Part shown: one piece after another, positions 47,319 to 64,000 of the stretch | Position numbering within the stretch: the stretch's first letter is position 1 | Layout: each line of letters begins with the position of its first letter | Assembly (NCBI GenBank): GCA_963851055.1 | Contig: CAWKMY010000005.1 | Coordinates: 12,716-76,715, forward strand | Direction of reading: 5' to 3' | Source of the DNA: an uncultured bacterium | Lineage (GTDB): Bacteria; Patescibacteriota; Minisyncoccia; Phycocordibacterales; PALSA-1337 | Length of the DNA: 64,000 bases | Made by a program: the position numbers and the translations under genes | The notes under the pieces: model-generated | Told to the model about the DNA's origin: nothing | Seen by the model: the letters and a program-made list of their open reading frames with translations, nothing else | The model's database searches: none

Positions 47319-48197
47319 ATTGCGATAACTATTTGTTTCGCGTTCCCCTCCGATGTATATCGGAGCCATACCGCTTCCCATCATTTCACGGCTTTGGACG
47401 TAGCGAGCGGATTTCCCGCACTACGCGAGTCCACAGTTCGTTGATTCATTTTACCTTTCAATTCCTTAATCTTTGATACCCCCTCTAGCGTCAGATGTTT
47501 GCCCTCTGCAACTATTTTCGATACTTGCGAAAAGAGTTTGAAGTTTTTCATCTTCGAAACTGACTGGAGTGGATGCTCTTGGAAGAAAGGAACTATTTTG
47601 TTCAATATATCCCTATGGGATGATACTGTGTAACGATAGCATTGAACGTGGTTACGTCTCTTTTCATTTTGAAAATAGACCGCTCCACATTCTAAGGTGT
47701 CTCTAACTTTCAGAAGAAGCGCTCTGTCGGCTTCTTGCATTTTGATGTGAAAGTGAAGATGAACACCGCTACCTGTACGGTACGATGATGACTTATTGAT
47801 GAGGACGTAAAAACATCCTTCCCCATCCGTAAGTCCAACAATATAATCGGCTGATACCGATTGTGGTTTTGTCCTTCCCATACGATTAATTATAACAAAT
47901 TAAGTTGACGCATGGTACTATGACGCAGCTGACTTCTCACATATCATACTGATATATGAGATCTCCTTGGGTCATTTGTCATTCTATTCCGGCCATCCTG
48001 ATCGAGCTTTCAATGATACTTCCTCATAACTCACCGTATGAGTCGTATCGCTCTTATGTGATTAGGCTGGCTTTTGCTACTAAGATCCTTCACCCATTCC
48101 CTTGCGGTAAATGGATTATCTTTTTGCTATTCCGATATTATCGGAACGTGGACTTTAACCACGTAGACCTTGACAAACTGCCAAGCGCATTTGATTC
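47319..48197 (-). mobile_element. intervening sequence (homing-endonuclease-bearing intron/IVS) in the 16S rRNA at about E. coli position 1398/1399; junctions +/-5 nt
   Basis: The conserved string ..CTTGTACTCA (ending 48198) is separated from CCGCCCGTCA (starting 47318) by 879 nt. That interval contains a LAGLIDADG ORF. Confidence 0.8.
47381..47881 (-). CDS. LAGLIDADG-family homing endonuclease (single-motif type)
   Basis: 166 aa. ADYIVGLTDGEGCFYVLI is a LAGLIDADG motif. The size fits a homodimeric I-CreI-like enzyme. Confidence 0.85.
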   Translation of the reverse strand: MGRTKPQSVSADYIVGLTDGEGCFYVLINKSSSYRTGSGVHLHFHIKMQEADRALLLKVRDTLECGAVYFQNEKRRNHVQCYRYTVSSHRDILNKIVPFFQEHPLQSVSKMKNFKLFSQVSKIVAEGKHLTLEGVSKIKELKGKMNQRTVDSRSAGNPLATSKAVK

Positions 48198-48432
48198 TGA
48201 GTACAAGACTTGAGAACGTATTCACCGCAGTATAGCTGACCTGCGATTACTAGCGATTCCGGCTTCATGAGGTCGAGTTGCAGACCTCAATCCGAACTGG
48301 CGCGCGGTTTCTAATGGTTTGCTCCGTCTTACGACATTGCGTCACGTTGTCCGCGCGATTGTAACACGTGTGTAGCCCAAGGCGTCAAAGGGCCATGCTG
48401 ACTTGGCGTCATCCCCACCTTCCTCCCAGCTT

Positions 48433-48530
48433 GGAAGAGAGGAGTAAGGAGTAGGAAGCAGGGAGAAAGGAGAATCGCATTTGCGATCTCTCCTTACTCC
48501 TTACTCCTTACTCCCTGCTCCCACCCTCTA
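48433..48530 (-). repeat. 98-nt hairpin expansion of 16S helix 40 built from heptamer repeats
   Basis: It is flanked by cccagctt (48425-48432) and aagctggg (48531-48538). Arms: ggagtaa ggagtag gaagcag ggagaaa ggagaat and ctcctta x3 ctccctg ctccc. The centre is cgcatttgcg. Confidence 0.8.
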
Positions 48531-49635
48531 AGCTGGGCGGTCTCGTCTGATACTTGTAACAGACAACAGGGGTTGCGTTCGTTACCCCACTGAAGGGAAC
48601 AGCTCAAGCCACGAACTGACGACAGCCATGCAGCACCTGTCCAGCCGCCTTTCGGCGACCCTAGTTTCCTAGGATCTTCGTCTGGATGTCTAGCCTTGGT
48701 AAGGTTCTTCGTTTATCGTCGAATTGAACCACATGTTCCACCGCTTGTGCAAGTCCCCGTCTATTTCTTTGAGTTTCAACCTTGCGGTCGTACTACCCAG
48801 GCGGATCTCTTAACGCGTTAGCTAAGCCTCGAGGAGGGTCGATACTCCTCAAAGCGAGAGATCATCGTTTAGGGCGTGGACTACTGGGGTATCTAATCCC
48901 ATTCGCGACCCACGCTTTCGTGCTTCAGCGTCAGATTTGGACCAGTTTGCTGCCTTCGCTTTTGGTGTTCCCCATGATATCAACGCATTTCACCGCTACA
49001 CCATGAGTTCCGCAAACCCCTTCCAACCTCTAAGTCCTGCCGTTTCCCACGCAGCTTCCCGGTTGAGCCGAGAAATTTAACGCGAGACTAACAGAACAGC
49101 CTACGCACCCTTTACGCCCAATAATTCCGGATAACGCTCGAGGCACTCGTATTACCGCTGCTGCTGGCACGAGTTTAGCAACCTCTTATTCTCCAGGTAC
49201 AATCAATAGACTTTTTCCCTGGCAAAAGGAGTTTACATGCCGAAGCACTTCATCCTCCACGCGGCGTCGCTCGATCAGACTTTCGTCCATTGTCGAATAT
49301 TCTCGTCTGCAGCCACCCGTAGGTGTATGGACCGTATCTCAGTTCCATCGGTGGGGGTCACCCTCTCAGGTCCCCTAGGCGTCATAGCCTTGGTAAGCCG
49401 TTACCTTACCAACTAGCTGATACCGATCAAGCCGCTCATAGGGCGAAAAAACTTTACTCTTGCGAGACTATCGGGAATTACCTACCCTTTCGGATAGCTA
49501 TGCCCGACCCTAAGATGCGTACTTGATTATTACTACCTCGTCTGCCGGTTGCTCCTTGCGGAGCCCCCTTGACTTGCATGACTTATCCACGCCGCCAGCG
49601 TTCATCCTGAGCTAGAATCAAACTCTTAACTATAA

Positions 49636-54936: not shown

Positions 54937-55491
54937 TCACTGGGTAGGGGTTATTTTTGAACTTGCAAGGATTCCTTGCGAGTTGCCACTCGGTTCCAGT
55001 TCTTCAGTCAACTTAAGAGTAATCTTTCCTCTAAGCTTCCCACTAAGACTCTTCGACTCTAGAAATGCGATAGTTTTATATAGACCAACCAATTTTTCTG
55101 GTGATCCTTCGAGACGAGGTTTGTTCAGAGCGTATCCTTCGACAAGATAGTTGCGCAGTATATTTGTGGCCCAAATACGGAATTGTGTGGCCTTTTTGGA
55201 ATTGACACGATAACCAACGGCTATGATGGCATTTAGATTGTAAAAATTCGCATCCCGTTTTACTTTGCGACCACCTTCGTCTTGAACTATCCGGAATTTC
55301 CGGATAGTTGAGGTTTCATCTAATTCTTTGGTATTAAATATATTCTTGAGGTGTTCATTGACAGTGCGCGTATCTACTTCGAACAATTGAGCCATTTGAG
55401 CTTGTGTAGCCCAGACTGTATCTTTCTCTATATCTGCACGCAATTCTACATTACCATTCTTGTCCTCAAATATAACGATGTTTTCTTTCAT
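54937..55491 (-). CDS. RhuM-family protein (shorter than usual)
   Basis: VWATQAQMAQLFEVDTRTVNEHLKNIF..IRKFRIVQDEGGRKVKRDANFYNLNAIIAVGYRVNSKKATQFRIWAT. Confidence 0.75.
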   Translation of the reverse strand: MKENIVIFEDKNGNVELRADIEKDTVWATQAQMAQLFEVDTRTVNEHLKNIFNTKELDETSTIRKFRIVQDEGGRKVKRDANFYNLNAIIAVGYRVNSKKATQFRIWATNILRNYLVEGYALNKPRLEGSPEKLVGLYKTIAFLESKSLSGKLRGKITLKLTEELEPSGNSQGILASSKITPTQ

Positions 55492-55713: not shown

Positions 55714-57324
55714 CTAAGTCGTCTCCTTGCCGCATGTCTCAATCTCCAGCATCCTATCCACACGGAATCTCCTCACCGACTGGCGCGTCCGACAGAATGC
55801 TTCCACGCCGAGATACTTTGCTCCTTTGAATTCCATCTCACCTATTTTCAAGGGCTCTATGATCCTGCGAGATTTCTCGTCATTATTCCTTAGATAAGTT
55901 ATGGAAAGGGCGGAGCCAGCGACAATGGCATTTTCGATGATGCCGACACGCTCGTCAATCGAACAAGCTTTTTCAGACTTTGCATACTGTAGCGCGGTGA
56001 CGAAACGCACCACTCGCCAATCCATGATGACATGCCTCTTCTCCAGCGGCTGATGTAAAGTTATGCCTTCCAATGTCCGACACCTAGACAGAGCGACATA
56101 TAACTGACCGTGGGCGAATGTTCCACGACCGATATCGATGATGATCTCGTCGAAAGTCTTGCCTTGGCTCTTGTGTATAGTGAGAGCCCATGCGAGCTTG
56201 AGTGGATACTGAGTGAATGACCCTATAGTCTTTGTCTTAAGCACGCCACCATCTACGCGGTATTCGAAAACGTCCCATTCATTCTCCGATACGGCACAAC
56301 TCTCGCCTGTTTCTAGCCGAACGGTTATGCCGTCTGGTCCATCGACTTCTTCTATCACTCCCATGGTGCCATTGACCCATCGGCCTCCGGCGTCATTATT
56401 GAGGAGCATGACTTGGGCTCCATCTTTCAAGCGCAATACTTCATCGGTCGGCATATGTGATCGATCAAATTTCCCTGTCACCGAAGCGGTATAGACATGT
56501 TCTTCGCCTGGCAATTCATCTAGGTTGAGCATATTTATCTCGGTGGCTTTTGCATTGGTGGAAGTCAGGCAGACTTTGAATTTCCCGCCGGAAGAGCCAG
56601 AAGCGCCGGCGGAGGAACTGGCAGAACTAGAGTGACGAGAAGATTTTTTATACCGTGCATTCAATTCAGCGAATTCGGCATCACCGACGCTATTGTTACG
56701 GATAGTATTCAAGAGCCGTATGAAATTGCCGTCGGATTGGCGATAGACTTTTTCCAATTCAATGAAATGGAACTCTTCATGGAAAAATGATTTGGCGCTA
56801 AAGAAATAAGGGCTCTTGTAAAGAGTCTCGAATGCATGTTTCTCGGAAGAAGCCACGACTGGCGGAAGCTGATACAAGTCGCCGATGAATATCATCTGCA
56901 ATCCGCCAAAAGGCAGACCAGCGCCATCCTTGGTGCGATTCAAGCGCAGGAATTTATCGAAGCAATCCAGTAGGTCGGCGCGAGTCATGGATATCTCATC
57001 GATGATGATGGCGTCGAGCTTCTCCAAGACTTTTACTTTCTTGTTATCATCCGGCAACTTTTTTACTTTTTTCAGAGTGATATCCGGCTTGAATCCACAA
57101 AATGAATGTATAGTCTGTCCGCCGACATTGACCGCGGCCACGCCAGTGGGAGCCAGGACCGCCACGCGCTTCTTCGTGCTCTTCCGAAACTCGGTCAGAA
57201 GTGTCGACTTACCTGTCCCCGCCCTACCGGTCAGAAATAGGTTGTCATGGGTGTCATCCATGATTCTCAAGGCCTCGAGAGCTTGAGGACTCCAGGATAA
57301 TGAGGGTTTGGCGGTAGAACTCAT
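55714..57324 (-). CDS. Pif1/RecD-family SF1 helicase with a C-terminal WYL-like domain
   Basis: Walker A is LTGRAGTGKST. IIIDEISM and TIHKSQGKTFDEIIIDIG..QLYVALSRCRTLEGI are present. The C-terminus YLGVEAFCRTRQSVRRFRVDRM follows the WYL pattern (WYL.A.C...R..R.FR.DRI). Confidence 0.85.
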   Translation of the reverse strand: MSSTAKPSLSWSPQALEALRIMDDTHDNLFLTGRAGTGKSTLLTEFRKSTKKRVAVLAPTGVAAVNVGGQTIHSFCGFKPDITLKKVKKLPDDNKKVKVLEKLDAIIIDEISMTRADLLDCFDKFLRLNRTKDGAGLPFGGLQMIFIGDLYQLPPVVASSEKHAFETLYKSPYFFSAKSFFHEEFHFIELEKVYRQSDGNFIRLLNTIRNNSVGDAEFAELNARYKKSSRHSSSASSSAGASGSSGGKFKVCLTSTNAKATEINMLNLDELPGEEHVYTASVTGKFDRSHMPTDEVLRLKDGAQVMLLNNDAGGRWVNGTMGVIEEVDGPDGITVRLETGESCAVSENEWDVFEYRVDGGVLKTKTIGSFTQYPLKLAWALTIHKSQGKTFDEIIIDIGRGTFAHGQLYVALSRCRTLEGITLHQPLEKRHVIMDWRVVRFVTALQYAKSEKACSIDERVGIIENAIVAGSALSITYLRNNDEKSRRIIEPLKIGEMEFKGAKYLGVEAFCRTRQSVRRFRVDRMLEIETCGKETT

Positions 57325-57430: not shown

Positions 57431-57458
57431 AAAAGCCGAGACATCAATCTCGGTTTTT
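57431..57458. terminator. bidirectional hairpin terminator
   Basis: AAAA-gccgaga-catcaa-tctcgg-TTTTT. Confidence 0.6.
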
Positions 57459-57604
57459 CACTGATTCAACTATCTTATCTCGCCAATCTCTGTCGATTTG
57501 TAACCTAATCTCCTGTTTACCTTCACCATTCCAGCCACGACGAAGATAGCGATACAAAAGCTAGAGGCTGGTGAGGCGTTCTAGAACTCTATTTTAGCAC
57601 AAAG

Positions 57605-57933: not shown

Positions 57934-58004
57934 ACGGAATCGCCCCCAGACCAAACTGTGACGTTTATCGTCGCTTGCCCGAAAGGGATAGGTCTGGGGG
58001 TTTT
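57934..58004 (+). ncRNA. candidate small structured RNA, or merely a terminator-like element
   Basis: The possible promoter is TTGACT (57899-57904), 17 nt, TAGCTT (57922-57927). A 10-bp closing stem cccccagacc (57943-57952) / ggtctggggg (57991-58000) encloses the hairpins gacg-tttat-cgtc and ccc-gaaa-ggg, followed by TTTT. Confidence 0.25.
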
Positions 58005-58015
58005 CGTTACCCTAT

Positions 58016-58642
58016 TTATTTAGGCCATATCTGGACATACATCTCTCTGGCACTGATCATCTCACGGAATTTCTTTCCATCTTTTTTCTTCTTGTTCAGG
58101 CTCCGATTGACTGCTCCAGCTATCATATCCACGAGTTGAAGGAGGTTATTTCCTTTCGAATCCTGCATCTTCACTTTCTTGATACAAACTTTTTCTTTCG
58201 TATTGGTTCTCTTCTTCAGATATGTGGCGAGCTGATACTTGAACATCTTGCGGCCGGATTGGTCTATAACCACGATGGCATTCTGAAGCTTTTCCTTTGC
58301 GTTTTCGAAGAGCAGACTGCTGACATACTTGTAAAATGATTCCTTGTATTTAAATCCCTCGCTGTAGAGTCCGGCCTTATTGATGACAATGCCGTAGTAA
58401 AAGAAATCGTATGGCAAAATTGCTTTTAGGAATGCTTCACGAACTCGATCAGAATTCTCCTTGAAATGAAACTCGTAATCTGGCGGAAGATTGAGCTCTT
58501 TCCGCAGAAGCCCAATTCGCTGGTCACAAGCCAGAGCGGCATCATTATCCTCAAAAGCAACCAGCACTATAGTGAAGAACCGACTTGCTCCGTCGGTTAT
58601 CTTCAATCCGGGATCTCCTGATTCGTCGATGAATACGAGCAT
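58016..58642 (-). CDS. DUF3800-family protein
   Basis: 208 aa. The MLVFIDESGDPG N-terminus is typical of DUF3800. TATAAT (58650-58655) lies 7 nt upstream of the ATG. Confidence 0.75.
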   Translation of the reverse strand: MLVFIDESGDPGLKITDGASRFFTIVLVAFEDNDAALACDQRIGLLRKELNLPPDYEFHFKENSDRVREAFLKAILPYDFFYYGIVINKAGLYSEGFKYKESFYKYVSSLLFENAKEKLQNAIVVIDQSGRKMFKYQLATYLKKRTNTKEKVCIKKVKMQDSKGNNLLQLVDMIAGAVNRSLNKKKKDGKKFREMISAREMYVQIWPK

Positions 58643-58817: not shown

Positions 58818-59135
58818 TTATACGAGTCTGTATATATCCAAGGCCACCTCCTCATATGGATGCGCTTCCCGGATGGCGGCGATGACACGTTCGACCGCGT
58901 CCTCCTCACAAGTGACTTCGATCCGCTCTTCCTCGACCGCTTCCAGCTTCCCGACCGTGCCGATATGGGGCATGGCGCCTCTCTCTGGCTTGAATCGTCC
59001 GACACCACGCACCGAAAATGTGCAATATGAATACTTCCCCAGCTTTCCGCCGCCCGCCGCGCCGATGGCGTCACGCACGTGATCGGCATGGGTGAGAGGA
59101 ACGAAGACGACGATCTTGGAGCGAGGGGTGGGCAT
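58818..59135 (-). CDS. stand-alone Nif3/YqfO insert-domain-like (PII-like fold) protein
   Basis: 105 aa. KIVVFVPLTHADHVRDAIGAAGGGKLGKYSYCTFSVRGVGRFKPERGAMPHIG..EEERIEVTCEE..AHPYEEVALDIY matches the inserted domain of NIF3-family proteins as I recall it. Confidence 0.6.
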   Translation of the reverse strand: MPTPRSKIVVFVPLTHADHVRDAIGAAGGGKLGKYSYCTFSVRGVGRFKPERGAMPHIGTVGKLEAVEEERIEVTCEEDAVERVIAAIREAHPYEEVALDIYRLV

Positions 59136-59205: not shown

Positions 59206-60291
59206 ATGAAAAAGACTAATCAAAAACTTGCCAAAATAAAAGTGGAGGGTCTTTTTCCGAATACACCCAAGCGGAGACGGCTTGGCAATTTCAAGATGAT
59301 TGACCTTTTTGCTGGCATTGGGGGTATAAGACTAGGCTTCGAAAGTATTGGCGGTGAATGCGTATTCACTTCAGAATGGGATGCTGCGGCACAAAAAACA
59401 TATTTTGCAAATTTTGGCGAAATTCCTTACGGAGATATAACTAAGATAAACCCAAAAGATATAGAACCTTTTGATGTGCTTCTTGCCGGATTTCCCTGTC
59501 AGCCATTTTCACAGGCTGGTAAGAAACTGGGACTTGCAGATACTCGTGGTACCTTGTTTTTTGATATAGCTAAAATAATTGAACATCATAGGCCTACAGT
59601 GGTATTCCTCGAAAATGTTAAGAGGTTCAGAAGTCATGATGGTGGAAGAACCTTCGAGACTATCAAGACAATCCTTGAAGGATTAGGGTACGAAATATAC
59701 GCCCAAGTTCTTAATGCCAAGAATTTTGGTTTACCTCAAAACCGCGAAAGGATTTATATAGTTGGTTTCCTTGGAAAAACTAACTTCTCATTTCCAGAGC
59801 CATCAGGAATAAAAACTAAACTTGGGGATATTTTGGAAAAGAAGGTTGATCCTAAATACACCATTTCAGACAAGCTTTGGGCCGGACATCAAAGAAGAAA
59901 GAAGGAACATCGTGAGAAGGGCAACGGCTTTGGGTATTCCCTGTTTAATCACGACTCCGAATATACGAGCACCATATCCGCTCGATATTATAAAGATGGA
60001 TCTGAAATACTCATCGAACAGAAAGGTAAAAACCCTAGGAAACTAACTCCGAGAGAAGCAGCTAGACTGCAAGGTTTTCCAGATGATTACGTTGTTTCAA
60101 CTAGTAATAGTCAGGCATACAAACAATTTGGTAATAGTGTAGCTGTGCCCGTAATCAAGGCAATCGCACAAGAAATCGGTAAATCCTTGAGAATGTTGAG
60201 GAAGAGTTCTGTCAAAGGATACAAAACCATTAACCTTGATAAAATTAAAAAGGAAAGTGTTGAAAAGGCTCTGAGCTCAGTAACGAATTAG
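59206..60291 (+). CDS. DNA (cytosine-5)-methyltransferase
   Basis: Motif I is DLFAGIGGIRLGF, motif IV GFPCQPFSQAG, motif VI ENVKRF, motif VIII QNRERIYIVGF, and motif X QFGNSVAVPV. Confidence 0.95.
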   Translation: MKKTNQKLAKIKVEGLFPNTPKRRRLGNFKMIDLFAGIGGIRLGFESIGGECVFTSEWDAAAQKTYFANFGEIPYGDITKINPKDIEPFDVLLAGFPCQPFSQAGKKLGLADTRGTLFFDIAKIIEHHRPTVVFLENVKRFRSHDGGRTFETIKTILEGLGYEIYAQVLNAKNFGLPQNRERIYIVGFLGKTNFSFPEPSGIKTKLGDILEKKVDPKYTISDKLWAGHQRRKKEHREKGNGFGYSLFNHDSEYTSTISARYYKDGSEILIEQKGKNPRKLTPREAARLQGFPDDYVVSTSNSQAYKQFGNSVAVPVIKAIAQEIGKSLRMLRKSSVKGYKTINLDKIKKESVEKALSSVTN

Positions 60292-60301
60292 GATAACTCA
60301 C

Positions 60302-61324
60302 CTAAAATATCACCAAGCCCCCTAAAAATAGGTATGGTGCTAATAGAGTATCTTCTCCCCCTCCACCACCAGTGCTACTAGACCAGCTTGTGCCTTTTAA
60401 AAAATCCTCGATAAAAATTGAATCCCATTGCAAGAAGCTTCTGTCCTGTCGATTGTTAATCTCTCTTACATTATAGAGAACTGGAAGATTTAATTTCTCC
60501 TTCAGATACAAATACCAAAGTATCCTCCGAGAGTCCCACCCAAATCTCCAACTATCTTTGTTGTCAATTTCATTAATTATCGGTGATTTTTCTTTTATCT
60601 CAACAACACAGTAACCATTTTTTGACTTCAGAAAACCATCAAGATCTATAATCTGTCTACCACTTGCCTCTCTTAAAATGACGTCTAGAAAATATCTATT
60701 TGCGTAGATATTTTTTAACACCTCAATATCATACTCGGCAAAGTATTCAAACTGCTCTCTTTTTCTTAACGGAAAGATACTCCTCTTCCTAGTCGACTTT
60801 TCAAATCTTGATAGGATGATTCCAAAATTTTGGATATTATCAAGTTCAAACTTATTCGTTTTAGTATTGAATTTATAAAAAATAAATTTTGGTACAAGTA
60901 TATTGCTTTCGACATCTTCCCTCAGACCATCACTGCCAATTCCACGCACGACAAATGGCACGTCTGTCCAATTATCATTGGATGTTCTTATATAGACCAA
61001 CTGATCAACTTCGTCCCATTTTGAGACTATTGAATAAATCTCCTCAAAATCTTCTACTGGATTAACAGCTAGGGTTACATACGTGAATCTATTCTTATCT
61101 GTGAGTTCTCCTGAGAGCTTCCGCGAAATAAATTTTCCCCCTTCAAAATATTTTATATATCCAAAATTCTCAACAAATTTTACAAACTCAATCTCCGCCC
61201 TAAAACCAAGTACTCTTCTCTTAAAATAATCATTGTTCTCGACTTTTTTATCACTAGCTGTACTGGTGCCAGAACATATTATCTTGTATAGCGAGTCGAT
61301 GATCTTCTCTTTTGAGACTTCCAT
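60302..61324 (-). CDS. putative type II restriction endonuclease (PD-(D/E)xK)
   Basis: 340 aa, convergent with the methyltransferase and 10 nt from it. IIDLDGFLKSKNGYCVVEIKEK fits a D...(D/E)xK nuclease core. Confidence 0.55.
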   Translation of the reverse strand: MEVSKEKIIDSLYKIICSGTSTASDKKVENNDYFKRRVLGFRAEIEFVKFVENFGYIKYFEGGKFISRKLSGELTDKNRFTYVTLAVNPVEDFEEIYSIVSKWDEVDQLVYIRTSNDNWTDVPFVVRGIGSDGLREDVESNILVPKFIFYKFNTKTNKFELDNIQNFGIILSRFEKSTRKRSIFPLRKREQFEYFAEYDIEVLKNIYANRYFLDVILREASGRQIIDLDGFLKSKNGYCVVEIKEKSPIINEIDNKDSWRFGWDSRRILWYLYLKEKLNLPVLYNVREINNRQDRSFLQWDSIFIEDFLKGTSWSSSTGGGGGEDTLLAPYLFLGGLVIF

Positions 61325-61391
61325 AATATATTATAATGTCACTTTTTTTGCCTATACGCAATGATCATACAAATGAGTATGCGGTACCGCT

Positions 61392-61739
61392 TCACAACTT
61401 TGAATATTTCGTATGCTTCCCTTTCACCTTCTCGACTGGATACTTTTTAGCTGTTTTAACAAGTTTTTTCTCCACAGCATCAATAAGATCGATGCCAAAA
61501 TCGTTACTCATCAAAATCAGCCAGTAGAGAGTGTCCGCTAATTCGTCTGCGACGTCTTCTTTGTGGTTTTTTAGGTGTTCCTCCATCTCCTTGGCATTTT
61601 TCCATTGAAAATGTTCCATGACTTCAGCGGCCTCTAAAACGAGAGAAAGGGCCGAATCTTTTGGGTTATGGAACTGTTTCCAGTCTCGGGCGTCCCTAAA
61701 AGCAAGGACTTTTTTGCTTATTTCGGAGAAATCAGACAT
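61392..61739 (-). CDS. MazG-like nucleoside triphosphate pyrophosphohydrolase (dCTPase-like)
   Basis: 115 aa. FRDARDWKQFHNPKDSALSLVLEAAEVMEHFQWK...VADELADTLYWLILMSNDFGIDL. Confidence 0.85.
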   Translation of the reverse strand: MSDFSEISKKVLAFRDARDWKQFHNPKDSALSLVLEAAEVMEHFQWKNAKEMEEHLKNHKEDVADELADTLYWLILMSNDFGIDLIDAVEKKLVKTAKKYPVEKVKGKHTKYSKL

Positions 61740-61755
61740 GGAGCCATTCTAGCGC
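61727..61755. repeat. 29-bp direct repeat, copy A (covers the mazG start codon)
   Basis: agaaatcagacaTggagccattctagcgc is 28/29 identical to 63796-63824. Confidence 0.9.
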
Positions 61756-61800
61756 GATTTTGGTAAGAGTAAAGATGCTGACATAACAAATCGAAATTAA

Positions 61801-62133
61801 CTACATCTGTAATATTTGTATCTTTTTCTCATCTGGAAATTGAGAAAATAAAATCATCCTTGCAATAAGTAAAATCCTTTTCCCTTTTGGAATAGCTAAA
61901 AAACCTCTTACCTTTATCTTCTTCTTTGCTTGTCTTGAGATATAATCATACATATACATCAATTGCTCAGCAGTGTGTTCTGTATGTAGCGTAGATTCGA
62001 TTTCTGCTTCCAATATAATCTCCTCTACAACACAAGCTTCTTTATTGATCTTTTGTATAAATAAATCTGGCAAATAACCACGGATGGGTGTCTTACGTTC
62101 ATGCCACTCCTTTTTAGAAACTTTCTTCGGCAA
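61801..62133 (-). CDS. hypothetical protein (downstream partner of the DGQHR gene)
   Basis: 110-aa ORF starting 36 nt after the DGQHR gene stop on the same strand. It is lysine-rich, and I recognise no motif. Confidence 0.45.
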   Translation of the reverse strand: MPKKVSKKEWHERKTPIRGYLPDLFIQKINKEACVVEEIILEAEIESTLHTEHTAEQLMYMYDYISRQAKKKIKVRGFLAIPKGKRILLIARMILFSQFPDEKKIQILQM

Positions 62134-62169
62134 CCCATCAATACTGACTCATGAAGTTCAGCCATTTTA

Positions 62170-63186
62170 TTAATTAATTTTACCTAGAACAAAATTGGCC
62201 AATTCAGCGTAAGCACCCATACCTGTACCAAATCTACGTGCTCCAGTTTTATTTGTTCTCTTCCAAAAATCAGCACCCAAATCAGTTAGCTTTGCGACTT
62301 TATTGCGAATCTTTTTTTCGTCCCATTTGTTCAATAAATGTGGAGCAATGAAAAAATTGAATACGAATATACCAGGAGTCTTTTGAATTAAATACCTCTT
62401 TGGTTCTTTGAATGCTTCTGGAATCGCTTCCTCAATCATTGACCAAAACTTAGCAAGCCTTTTTGCAACTTTCTTATGCTGCTTATTCTTTCCGCTAATA
62501 AGTACCTGTCTCAAGGATGAGACGAATGATTTTTCTGTTGCGATATGAGTCTGGAGTCTTTCCTCGTTTGGTTGTCTAATTGCATCAAACCAAGGGTTAT
62601 CCTTAATCTCTTTATTAAGATCAATCGTAATGTGGACTGCTGAGATCTCCCAAGGTTTTACGTCTGCAATTTCGTTTATATAATCATTTTCAATCAGTAA
62701 TCGACGCGTTAAGGCAACGTCCATCTTTTTTGCCTTAGTGTTTATTAAATAAAATTGTGCAGCTTCCTTAAGTCTATCCAAACCTTCAACTATAACGACT
62801 GGAAAAAAGAAATTTGAATCGATAGATCCCCTATCTTTGGCATGATGAAGTCCTTTCAACCTGTGTTGCATGTCAACCACCCATACATCGGTCCCATCGG
62901 GAATAATCAGCTGTCCTTTAGCATATTTTAACTTACCAACATTCCTAACATTAAGTAGGCCTGCAACTGGCATTATAGAATCTTTTTTTTCAAAATATTT
63001 TGCTATCTTTTTTATTCTCTGTTCATCTGGATTACGTTGATAACCCCTCTTATTAAGAACACTTTTAGGATTCCAAGTATCAACCTGAAACCGTTCAAGC
63101 ATTGAGACTGGGACCGTCGCAATATACATCTGGATATTACGTTGTTTGAATGGTATAGCCGGTATGTGTAAGCTCATAAACACCAT
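62170..63186 (-). CDS. DGQHR-domain protein (DndB/DpdB-like, ParB/Srx fold)
   Basis: 338 aa. RGYQRNPDEQRIKKIAKYF and VWVVDMQHRLKGL (DGQHR variant DMQHR) are in the expected order and spacing. Confidence 0.75.
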   Translation of the reverse strand: MVFMSLHIPAIPFKQRNIQMYIATVPVSMLERFQVDTWNPKSVLNKRGYQRNPDEQRIKKIAKYFEKKDSIMPVAGLLNVRNVGKLKYAKGQLIIPDGTDVWVVDMQHRLKGLHHAKDRGSIDSNFFFPVVIVEGLDRLKEAAQFYLINTKAKKMDVALTRRLLIENDYINEIADVKPWEISAVHITIDLNKEIKDNPWFDAIRQPNEERLQTHIATEKSFVSSLRQVLISGKNKQHKKVAKRLAKFWSMIEEAIPEAFKEPKRYLIQKTPGIFVFNFFIAPHLLNKWDEKKIRNKVAKLTDLGADFWKRTNKTGARRFGTGMGAYAELANFVLGKIN

Positions 63187-63383
63187 ACTAGCTCTATTTT
63201 GACAAATGTAAAGATCTGAATCTTCTTATTTCCCCATCTCCAGCACCTCATCAATACGTATCTACTTCACAAACTCAGGTACGTAGGAGGCCAATATCAT
63301 GGCCCCATTCATAGGCATCCAGAGCCTTGGCAATAGGGCGAGCGACTTTTACGCGTCAGAGGAGATGTTAAACTGTAATATCA

Positions 63384-63821
63384 ATGGACAAAAACACTTA
63401 CAAAAGTAGTAAAGCTGTCATTCTTGGCTATATCAAAAAAGCACAAGAAAATAAACCTGATCTCGGTGATTACTTGGGCAAACACTTCTCCTTCGATGAT
63501 TTTAAAAGGACTCTTACTTATACAGGAGACGTAAGTGCATTTGGTAATCTAGTTGATAATAACCATCGTCCAACTAAAGACAAAAGTGAATGTTTTGATT
63601 GTAAAAGAGATACCAGTAAGAATCCAAGAGACTACTATATGGTTACCGACAACATCTGGAAGAAGTATGGGGTCGGAAAAAATAACTTATGTATGAGTTG
63701 TTTGGAAAAAAGAATCGGACGTACATTAGAAAAATCAGATATCTTGGAATGCCCTGTCACTAACGAGTGGAACCCATATACTTCTAACATTCTCAAGAAA
63801 TCAGACACGGAGCCATTCTAG
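63384..63821 (+). CDS. hypothetical protein with a CxxC...CxxC zinc-ribbon-like motif
   Basis: 145 aa. SECFDCKRD...NNLCMSCLEKRIG. Its last 8 codons lie inside direct-repeat copy B. Confidence 0.45.
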   Translation: MDKNTYKSSKAVILGYIKKAQENKPDLGDYLGKHFSFDDFKRTLTYTGDVSAFGNLVDNNHRPTKDKSECFDCKRDTSKNPRDYYMVTDNIWKKYGVGKNNLCMSCLEKRIGRTLEKSDILECPVTNEWNPYTSNILKKSDTEPF

Positions 63822-63824
63822 CGC
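63796..63824. repeat. 29-bp direct repeat, copy B
   Basis: agaaatcagacaCggagccattctagcgc. After the repeat both copies continue with a T-rich tract (gattttgg versus ttttttgc). Confidence 0.9.
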
Positions 63825-64000
63825 TTTTTTGCCAAATTGGAAGACTTAGTGTAAAGAGTTGTAATCCCCAAAAAAGCTTGTACGCAAATCTATCGCATGT
63901 TAGAGTCTGCATAAGGCCTATCGCGTTTACGCGGTAGGGTCCCCAAATAGACTGAGTGGCTTTAGATTAGTTAGAAGCTCGGTAAATTTGGAAACCCTAT

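Follow-up and report, generated by a model that had tools for sequence, protein, structure and literature searches.

How does the start of one gene come to stand twice in a chromosome, on either side of about 2 kb of other genes? The question is raised by a stretch of 64,000 nucleotides from a Patescibacteria bacterium (the whole analysed stretch is called the window here), in which 29 bp at the start of mazG, the gene for a MazG-like nucleotide pyrophosphohydrolase, are repeated upstream of that gene. Between the two copies lie the genes for a 121-residue protein, a DGQHR-domain protein and a zinc-ribbon protein. The window is part of a bacterial chromosome, as it carries the genes for SecA, GatB, pyruvate kinase and 16S rRNA. 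With a probability of roughly 0.6, we interpret the repeat as a recombination scar, left when two alleles of a single defence hotspot, located between mazG and an ABC-F ATPase gene, were joined by homology-anchored illegitimate recombination.

The 29-bp repeat and the empty site

Copy A (AGAAATCAGACATGGAGCCATTCTAGCGC, with ACATGG) and copy B (AGAAATCAGACACGGAGCCATTCTAGCGC, with ACACGG at the same place) are in direct orientation, and 28 of their 29 positions are identical (Table 1). The distance from start to start is 2069 bp. Beyond the 29-mer only weak similarity is present, extending up to 36 nt at 92%. A third copy was not found in the window when up to three mismatches were allowed, and 100 dinucleotide-preserving shuffles gave no 29-mer match. 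Exact-match scans of genome_contigs, metagenome_contigs and viral_contigs, using either the 29-mer or its 23-nt core, gave no match; the source genome is evidently outside those collections. The same arrangement is present in two more assemblies, L002/L004 (99.98% identical) and L001/L003, which carries another methyltransferase allele (85% identical). Because these assemblies share the arrangement, the repeat is not an assembly artefact. The explanation by chance similarity or artefact is refuted, and no point speaks for it: the shuffles are empty, three assemblies share the structure, and the repeat coincides with a mazG promoter and start that are conserved in relatives.

Copy A contains the mazG start codon, with the ATG at 61739 of the minus strand, and the first four codons. 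In copy B the ATG is replaced by GTG. Copy B is located within coding DNA and not between genes, since it supplies the last eight codons and the stop codon of the zinc-ribbon open reading frame (ORF) on the plus strand. The 29-bp repeat is a genuine duplication of the mazG promoter and start codon. As a separate observation, the GTG of copy B is the start of a 57-residue ORF (63635–63808, minus strand) antisense to the zinc-ribbon gene.

The window MazG has 3728 homologues, mostly from Patescibacteria. The closest one, P0004, is 87% identical and shares the start MSDFSEISKK; its gene is located in L009/L010. In these contigs mazG lies directly downstream of the gene for a 529-residue ABC-F-type ATPase with two ABC_tran domains, and the gap of 63 bp corresponds to an empty site. 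L009 has the 29-mer only once (AGAAATCAGACATAGGGCCATTCTAGCGC, 27/29 identical), followed by TTTTCAGGCAAAAAGAAAG and then by the ABC-F stop codon. Downstream of mazG, L009 has a RhuM gene and a DinB-type polymerase gene, and the window shows the same order, reversed. The sequence GCGCTAGAAT upstream of mazG is conserved in L009 and L011, and the close variant AGCGTAGAAT is found in L012. It looks like a −10 box.

The flanks of the two copies were compared with the mazG upstream sequences of L009 and L011. The 21 nt to the right of copy B agree at 14/21 positions with L009 and at 15/21 with L011, and L009 and L011 agree with each other at 16/21. For the 21 nt to the right of copy A, the values are 11/21 and 8/21. 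Since the flank of copy B matches at the level found between orthologues, copy B is where the original upstream sequence of mazG sets in again. Compared with the ancestral state, the segment enclosed by the repeats has been inserted, and about 2 kb of foreign DNA separates mazG from its own promoter. To the right of 63824 the native upstream sequence continues for about 25–55 nt only, and then another insertion, a DUF3800 pseudogene, begins.

A preliminary description of this DNA had reported the two copies with the same positions, identity and spacing, the mazG start codon in copy A and the GTG in copy B, and all of these observations were reproduced. It had also allowed for a dispersed repeat, which the scans argue against, and had proposed that the native upstream region resumes at copy B and that the DNA between the copies is an insertion. 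Both proposals are borne out by the flank comparison together with the empty site of L009/L010.

The insertion would have consequences for transcription. A promoter-like TTTACT-16-TAGAAT is located upstream of mazG on the minus strand (61773–61746). We infer that mazG retains the −10 box of copy A in combination with a new −35-like hexamer. The native promoter at copy B appears intact, and it would now face antisense through the zinc-ribbon gene and then sense through the DGQHR gene, the 121-residue gene and mazG. This promoter probably drives antisense transcription over the zinc-ribbon gene.

The microhomology joint and the second repeat

The zinc-ribbon protein has only three close homologues (in L007 and L005, and P0003), of which the first two have a contig on record. 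The homologue of L007, P0001, is 91% identical and terminates with NILKK. L007 has AAGAAATGAGAGG at the position where the window has AAGAAATCAGACACGG, and the DNA homology to L007 ends at 63805. Because the L007 homologue ends with KK and the homology stops there, the tail SDTEPF of the window protein is foreign to the zinc-ribbon gene. A family-wide search with the C-terminal domain (1405 representatives) is consistent with this, as the matches end near residues 137–142. The native zinc-ribbon end in L007 (AGAAATGAGA) and the mazG antisense sequence (AGAAATCAGA) share six perfect nucleotides, and nine of ten overall. This microhomology reads AGAAAT(C/G)AGA and falls, on the mazG side, in the antisense strand of codons 2–4; copy B begins there. 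Its length falls within the 3–10 nt for which the non-homologous joint was tested.

A second repeat is present at the locus. Between the DGQHR and zinc-ribbon genes lies a decayed copy of the 3' end of the ABC-F gene. L003 runs 1184 bp past the end of the window and includes the true ABC-F 3' end (L003 5760–5862), to which the 107-bp fragment is about 90% identical with one indel, at a spacing of 1660–1661 bp. The fragment is 87% identical to the ABC-F 3' end of L007. The DUF3800 pseudogene occupies 4795–5736 of L003, between the orphan mazG promoter and ABC-F, and is split among four separate ORF pieces. The N-terminal motif ILFIDESG and the 208-residue C-terminal piece are in different reading frames, and the ABC-F stop codon is located 18 nt past the pseudogene. 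The order of the locus is copy A, 121-residue gene, DGQHR gene, ABC-F fragment, zinc-ribbon gene, copy B, native promoter remnant, DUF3800 pseudogene and ABC-F. The two repeat pairs interleave and are not nested, the 107-bp copy being inside the DNA bracketed by the 29-mers. Because of this interleaved order, the ancestral junction from the mazG start to the ABC-F end is present twice, each time with different cargo, and the zinc-ribbon gene is at the joint. The insert is a composite of the DGQHR gene with its partner of about 120 residues, the ABC-F fragment and the zinc-ribbon gene. Given its ABC-F fragment, an origin from the same hotspot in another strain would fit better than an origin from a free element.

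The following steps could account for this structure. In the ancestral state, the ABC-F gene would be followed by about 60 bp and then mazG, as in L009, and strains would fill the spacer with differing cargo. Allele 1 would consist of the mazG start, the 121-residue gene, the DGQHR gene and the last 107 bp of ABC-F. Allele 2 would consist of the first 12 nt of mazG with the promoter, the DUF3800 pseudogene and ABC-F. The window would contain both alleles in tandem, with the zinc-ribbon gene where they meet. The likeliest route would be homology-facilitated illegitimate recombination, in which DNA arriving from a related strain was anchored at one end by homology in mazG and joined at the other end at AGAAAT(C/G)AGA. 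As the illegitimate joint would lie within the mazG anchor, a duplicate of 29 bp from the promoter and start of that gene would result. An earlier event of the same kind would have duplicated the 107 bp of the ABC-F 3' end. The same product would arise in two steps if a circle were first excised at this microhomology and then entered by RecA-type integration via the 29-bp identity. A dedicated recombinase would not be required.

Homology-facilitated illegitimate recombination during the uptake of foreign DNA has been described for Acinetobacter and Streptococcus pneumoniae. The window resembles such events in having one homologous anchor, microhomology at the other joint and a duplication of the recipient sequence adjacent to the anchor. 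It differs in that the pathway is here deduced from the anatomy of the sequence alone, and the circle route gives the same product. The term itself is used in PMC6382021.

The direction of the event may also have been the reverse. In the mirror-image version, the newcomer would be the 1.66-kb segment between the 107-bp ABC-F repeats (zinc-ribbon gene, orphan mazG start and DUF3800 pseudogene), which would have entered a resident allele of mazG, 121-residue gene, DGQHR gene and ABC-F with its anchor in ABC-F, and copy B would have been brought from the donor. In favour of this version, the repeat of 107 bp exceeds the 29-mer in length and has the typical form of a duplicated gene 3' end. Moreover, L007 has about 450 bp of different DNA between the zinc-ribbon gene and ABC-F, so that this interval is itself variable, and the end product is identical in both versions. 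The available sequences, however, do not distinguish the two versions: the event is of one class in both and only the anchor differs, and the mirror-image version, too, requires the microhomology joint of the zinc-ribbon 3' end with the mazG start. We consider it a minority possibility. Neither parental allele was recovered, and the newcomer may be either the 2.07 kb with the DGQHR gene, anchored in mazG, or the 1.66 kb with the DUF3800 pseudogene, anchored in ABC-F.

Several points weigh against recombination between two alleles as the origin of the repeat. No contig with a single allele was recovered, neither mazG–DUF3800–ABC-F nor mazG–121-residue gene–DGQHR–ABC-F lacking the zinc-ribbon gene, and for this reason the parental alleles are deduced and not observed. 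The microhomology argument takes the L007 end (92.8% DNA identity) as the ancestral 3' end of the zinc-ribbon gene. L007 is the sole close comparator for that gene, and since its contig begins only 10 nt rightward of the ABC-F fragment, the left context is missing. A site-specific att core would also give a nearly perfect block of 29 bp with fairly sharp edges, and the recombinase screen described below covered only part of the genome. Finally, natural transformation or another route of DNA entry is assumed for this organism. When the exact MazG, zinc-ribbon and DGQHR proteins were looked up, the same arrangement alone was obtained, with no empty-site or single-allele variant of this strain.

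Mobile-element machinery

Direct repeats around an insertion are also produced by mobile elements, and the window was examined for their machinery. Among the 29 window ORFs scanned, including all ORFs of 53.5–64 kb, neither integrase or transposase domains nor an IntI integrase or attI platform were found. No recombinase domain was detected in the DGQHR, 121-residue and zinc-ribbon proteins using Pfam, NCBIfam, PHROGs and PADLOC. Terminal inverted repeats are absent from the insert ends, as no inverted repeat links 61756–61800 with 63750–63795. Both copies were folded with 12–15 nt of flank on both strands, and an attC-like hairpin was not found: the minimum free energies are −0.3 to −2.4 kcal/mol, values no more stable than the shuffle means (z = +0.5 to +2.0).

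The insertion of a transposon or insertion sequence with target-site duplication, or of an integron-type cassette with attC, would explain why direct repeats flank the insert. All the other features tested contradict it. To our knowledge, 29 bp far exceeds the target-site duplications made by transposases, the insert has no terminal inverted repeats just inward of the 29-mers, a transposase or IntI was not found in the ORFs scanned, neither copy folds into a hairpin, and the genes of the insert are on both strands. This explanation can hardly be correct.

Another explanation is a site-specific mobile cassette. The 2.07 kb would then be an element without its own integrase, and a tyrosine or serine recombinase with its gene elsewhere in the genome would act in trans on the 29-bp att core. 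Such an att core is expected to leave a duplicated block of identity and an empty site in relatives, and both are found (the 28/29 repeat, and L009/L010); the spacer between ABC-F and mazG is also occupied repeatedly in relatives. Against these points, no recombinase was found in the insert or in the ORFs scanned, and the three genes do not travel together, as they were not found as a unit in L091–L096, L005 or L007. The insert contains a pseudogenized piece of the neighbouring core gene, which is a better fit to descent from the same locus, and copy B starts at the microhomology with the native zinc-ribbon 3' end. Other occupants of the hotspot lack the duplication, with L009, L011 and L012 having one 29-mer copy each, and the 29-mer has no match in three large collections. 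We regard this explanation as unlikely.

Integrative elements that duplicate gene 3' ends as attL and attR are comparable in that direct repeats of a conserved gene end flank the insert and relatives have the empty site. The window differs from them in three respects: no integrase was found in it and the bracketed genes are not a recurrent unit, the repeat pairs interleave, and at one joint there is microhomology to the end of an unrelated gene.

A further reading takes the 29-mer as functional and not as a scar. Either an integron-like platform with an integrase acting in trans would use the 3' end of ABC-F and the promoter and start of mazG as paired recombination sites, or the zinc-ribbon protein would be a new factor that targets or promotes the insertion of neighbouring DNA. 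The zinc-ribbon gene is at the edge of a variable stretch in both contexts that can be read on both sides (the window and L005); in L007 it is beside ABC-F, and the other side is off the contig. This reading seems still less probable than the mobile cassette.

The preliminary description had likewise seen no integrase or transposase between the copies, and the domain scans confirm it. Its three-gene cassette does not hold, because the zinc-ribbon gene is missing from the other occurrences of the DGQHR gene and its partner that were examined, and is itself found where the DGQHR gene is absent. Its reading of the repeat as an att-like site, a target-site duplication or an integron-like boundary is contradicted by the lack of a recombinase, terminal inverted repeats and hairpin in the searches above, and by the microhomology at which copy B starts. 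Its alternative of exchange at a defence-island hotspot turned out to be the correct general frame.

The hotspot and its cargo

The locus is a defence hotspot flanked by core genes in a Patescibacteria bacterium, and it is unusual only for its preserved joints. The relatives, which are labelled Patescibacteria, Paceibacterota or Saccharibacteria, have conserved genes at the flanks and variable content between them. In addition to the direct arrangement in L009/L010, ABC-F is followed by a 130-residue ORF and a pseudouridine synthase gene in L012/L013 (1695 bp to mazG), by a pseudouridine synthase gene and an HNH protein gene in L011 (1877 bp), and by a toxin–antitoxin-like pair and other genes in L114 (about 2.6 kb). 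In the window, two cargo sets in tandem occupy about 3.15 kb between ABC-F and mazG. L115 and L097 have no mazG at this site: ABC-F is followed after 65 bp by dinB, the gene for the DinB-type polymerase, in L115, and after 359 bp by a homologue of the PII-like gene of the window in L097. According to these arrangements without mazG and with varied gaps, all of the low-GC DNA between 59200 and about 64890 is variable cargo flanked by core genes, and mazG is one of the variable genes.

From about 59200 rightward the GC content of the window falls from about 0.50 to about 0.36. The low-GC stretch contains, in order, the genes for a C5 methyltransferase, a 340-residue ORF, the MazG-like protein, the 121-residue protein, the DGQHR/DndB-like protein and the zinc-ribbon protein. 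Defence genes are enriched in the window: the C5 methyltransferase with its putative endonuclease, two DUF3800 genes (PADLOC PDC-M04A), the DGQHR gene and a PIF1–WYL helicase gene. The position of the 340-residue ORF suggests that it is the restriction endonuclease partner of the methyltransferase. The defence-type cargo of relatives includes HNH, toxin–antitoxin-like and DUF2075-like ATPase genes.

Table 1. Positions of the features of the locus in the window
Feature	Position	Strand	Remarks
PII/CutA-like 105-residue core gene	58818–59135	−	Left edge of the low-GC variable stretch; weak Pfam P-II match
C5 cytosine DNA methyltransferase gene	59206–60291	+	Island cargo; PF00145, E = 1e-107
340-residue ORF	60302–61324	−	No family match; putative restriction endonuclease partner, by position only
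mazG, MazG-like nucleotide pyrophosphohydrolase	61392–61739	−	One anchor of the hotspot; PF12643, E = 2.8e-16
29-mer copy A	61727–61755		mazG codons 1–4 and 16 nt upstream, including the conserved TAGAAT −10-like box (61746–61751, minus strand)
121-residue partner of DGQHR	61801–62166	−	Frameshifted in the window; 46–49% identical to the gene after DGQHR in L091–L096
DGQHR-domain protein gene (DndB/DpdB-like, ParB fold), 338 residues	62170–63186	−	PF14072, E = 1.3e-17; TIGR03187, 95.7 bits (cutoff 58.85)
Decayed ABC-F ATPase gene end, last ~107 bp	63230–63336	−	Stop codon included; between the DGQHR and zinc-ribbon genes
145-residue zinc-ribbon protein gene	63384–63821	+	Native end ~63803; last 6 codons (SDTEPF) and stop from copy B
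29-mer copy B	63796–63824		Orphan mazG start (ATG to GTG) with −10 box, fused onto the zinc-ribbon 3' end
Native mazG upstream (promoter −35 region)	63825–63850	−	Orthologous to the L009/L011 mazG upstream; 14/21 and 15/21 identity
DUF3800-like pseudogene, 3' end	63927–64000	−	Runs off the window edge; weak PF12686 match on a 188-residue piece

The comparison with L003 points to allele exchange. L003 is 100% identical to the window at 61169–64000, and the methyltransferase is only 85% identical (compared stretch: window 59206–61324, L003 72–2191). The 340-residue ORF of L003, the putative endonuclease, has several frameshifts. Because 100% identity adjoins 85% identity, allele exchange is active at the locus, and the mosaic would imply a recent allele swap together with decay of the restriction gene in that strain. 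The view of L003 as a strain that diverged independently and has kept the repeats was also considered, and was rejected, as the complete identity from 61169 leaves no signal of independent conservation.

The DGQHR protein scores far below the cutoffs of the equivalog models for DpdB (47.7 against 300) and DndB (20.5 against 328). Homologues with about 65% identity are found in Acidobacteriota, Omnitrophota and other phyla. In both other contexts examined (L091–L096), which are unrelated, the next gene encodes a homologue of the partner with 119–121 residues (46–49% identical), and the zinc-ribbon gene is not present beside the pair in either of them. The partner (start MAELHES) belongs to no known family and accompanies DGQHR in every context examined. 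Compared with L003 and L004, the window copy of its gene lacks one nucleotide at 62116, and it is either a true pseudogene in this strain or the result of a consensus error; owing to this deletion, the preliminary description had read the gene short, as an ORF of 110 residues. Judged from gene order across Acidobacteriota, Omnitrophota and Patescibacteria, DGQHR and its partner form a conserved two-gene module, and it is a candidate for a previously undescribed defence system. The window protein has the DGQHR domain of DndB and DpdB, the proteins of the Dnd phosphorothioation and Dpd 7-deazaguanine systems. It differs from them in the equivalog scores, in its pairing with a protein of about 120 residues and in its neighbourhood: no dndACDE, dpdA or dpdC genes were found near it, where the neighbours are the 121-residue gene, mazG and the zinc-ribbon gene. 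At the L091–L096 loci only short two-copy flanking matches of 24–26 nt were observed, and their meaning is doubtful.

The zinc-ribbon protein matches phrog_6053, whose function is not known. It has no match in Pfam, NCBIfam, PADLOC or the PDB sequences, and relatives were not found in viral contigs by alignment search. An AlphaFold2 model built from four sequences is poor, with a mean predicted local distance difference test (pLDDT) score of 49.7. In L007 the gene is beside ABC-F across the interval mentioned above, and in L005 it lies between a HinfI-type restriction–modification system and housekeeping genes; the DGQHR gene is present with it in neither contig. L005 was also considered as an island anchored at tRNA-Thr and ending at the zinc-ribbon gene, and no flanking repeat was found. 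A terminator-like hairpin with a small minus-strand ORF (with IDRDWRDKIVESVKNRD) is conserved between the window (57432–57599) and L005 (6604–6853), which are otherwise unrelated. In both, a few kb separate this pair from the zinc-ribbon gene, and it stands at the distant border of a variable stretch.

Other features of the window lie outside the insert. The Rfam DUF3800-IX RNA motif is found at 57942–58005 on the plus strand (55 bits against a gathering score of 36.8, E = 1e-9) and adjoins the 3' end of a DUF3800 gene on the opposite strand (58016–58642). Between dinB and the island are the gene for a PIF1-type helicase fused to a WYL domain (55714–57324, minus strand) and a RhuM-family gene (54937–55491, minus strand); PIF1-like helicase genes are also located about 1 kb downstream of ABC-F in L101 and L109. 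A LAGLIDADG homing-endonuclease ORF (47381–47881, minus strand) lies just downstream of the 16S rRNA gene (48184–49633, minus strand), with a weak match to group II intron domains D1–D4 nearby (47871–47958). The rRNA operon may thus contain an intron or a homing element here.

The closest known parallel is provided by the core defence hotspots cDHS1 and cDHS2 of Pseudomonas aeruginosa (PMC10250203). These are likewise fixed sites between conserved genes, with defence-rich content that varies in nearly every relative. In the window the anchors are the ABC-F ATPase gene on one side and mazG, the PII-like gene or dinB on the other, and no mobile-element markers were found. Transfer of such hotspots by homologous recombination via the conserved flanks is proposed in PMC10250203, and this flank-mediated exchange is expected there to leave no scars derived from mobile elements. 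The present locus differs in its host, which belongs to the Patescibacteria (candidate phyla radiation), and in its visible scars: each anchor is duplicated in part, mazG over 29 bp at its 5' end and ABC-F over 107 bp at its 3' end.

How hotspots flanked by core genes are built and filled without mobile-element machinery is treated as an open question in PMC10250203, and the locus described here bears on it. Patescibacteria have tiny genomes and are not growable in pure culture. The module of DGQHR and its partner of about 120 residues is flagged here as a candidate defence system. The finding is real, it can be explained, and it introduces no new principle. With both anchors partly duplicated, a microhomology joint and two alleles in tandem, the locus provides direct sequence evidence that defence islands can grow by anchor-based recombination between related strains.

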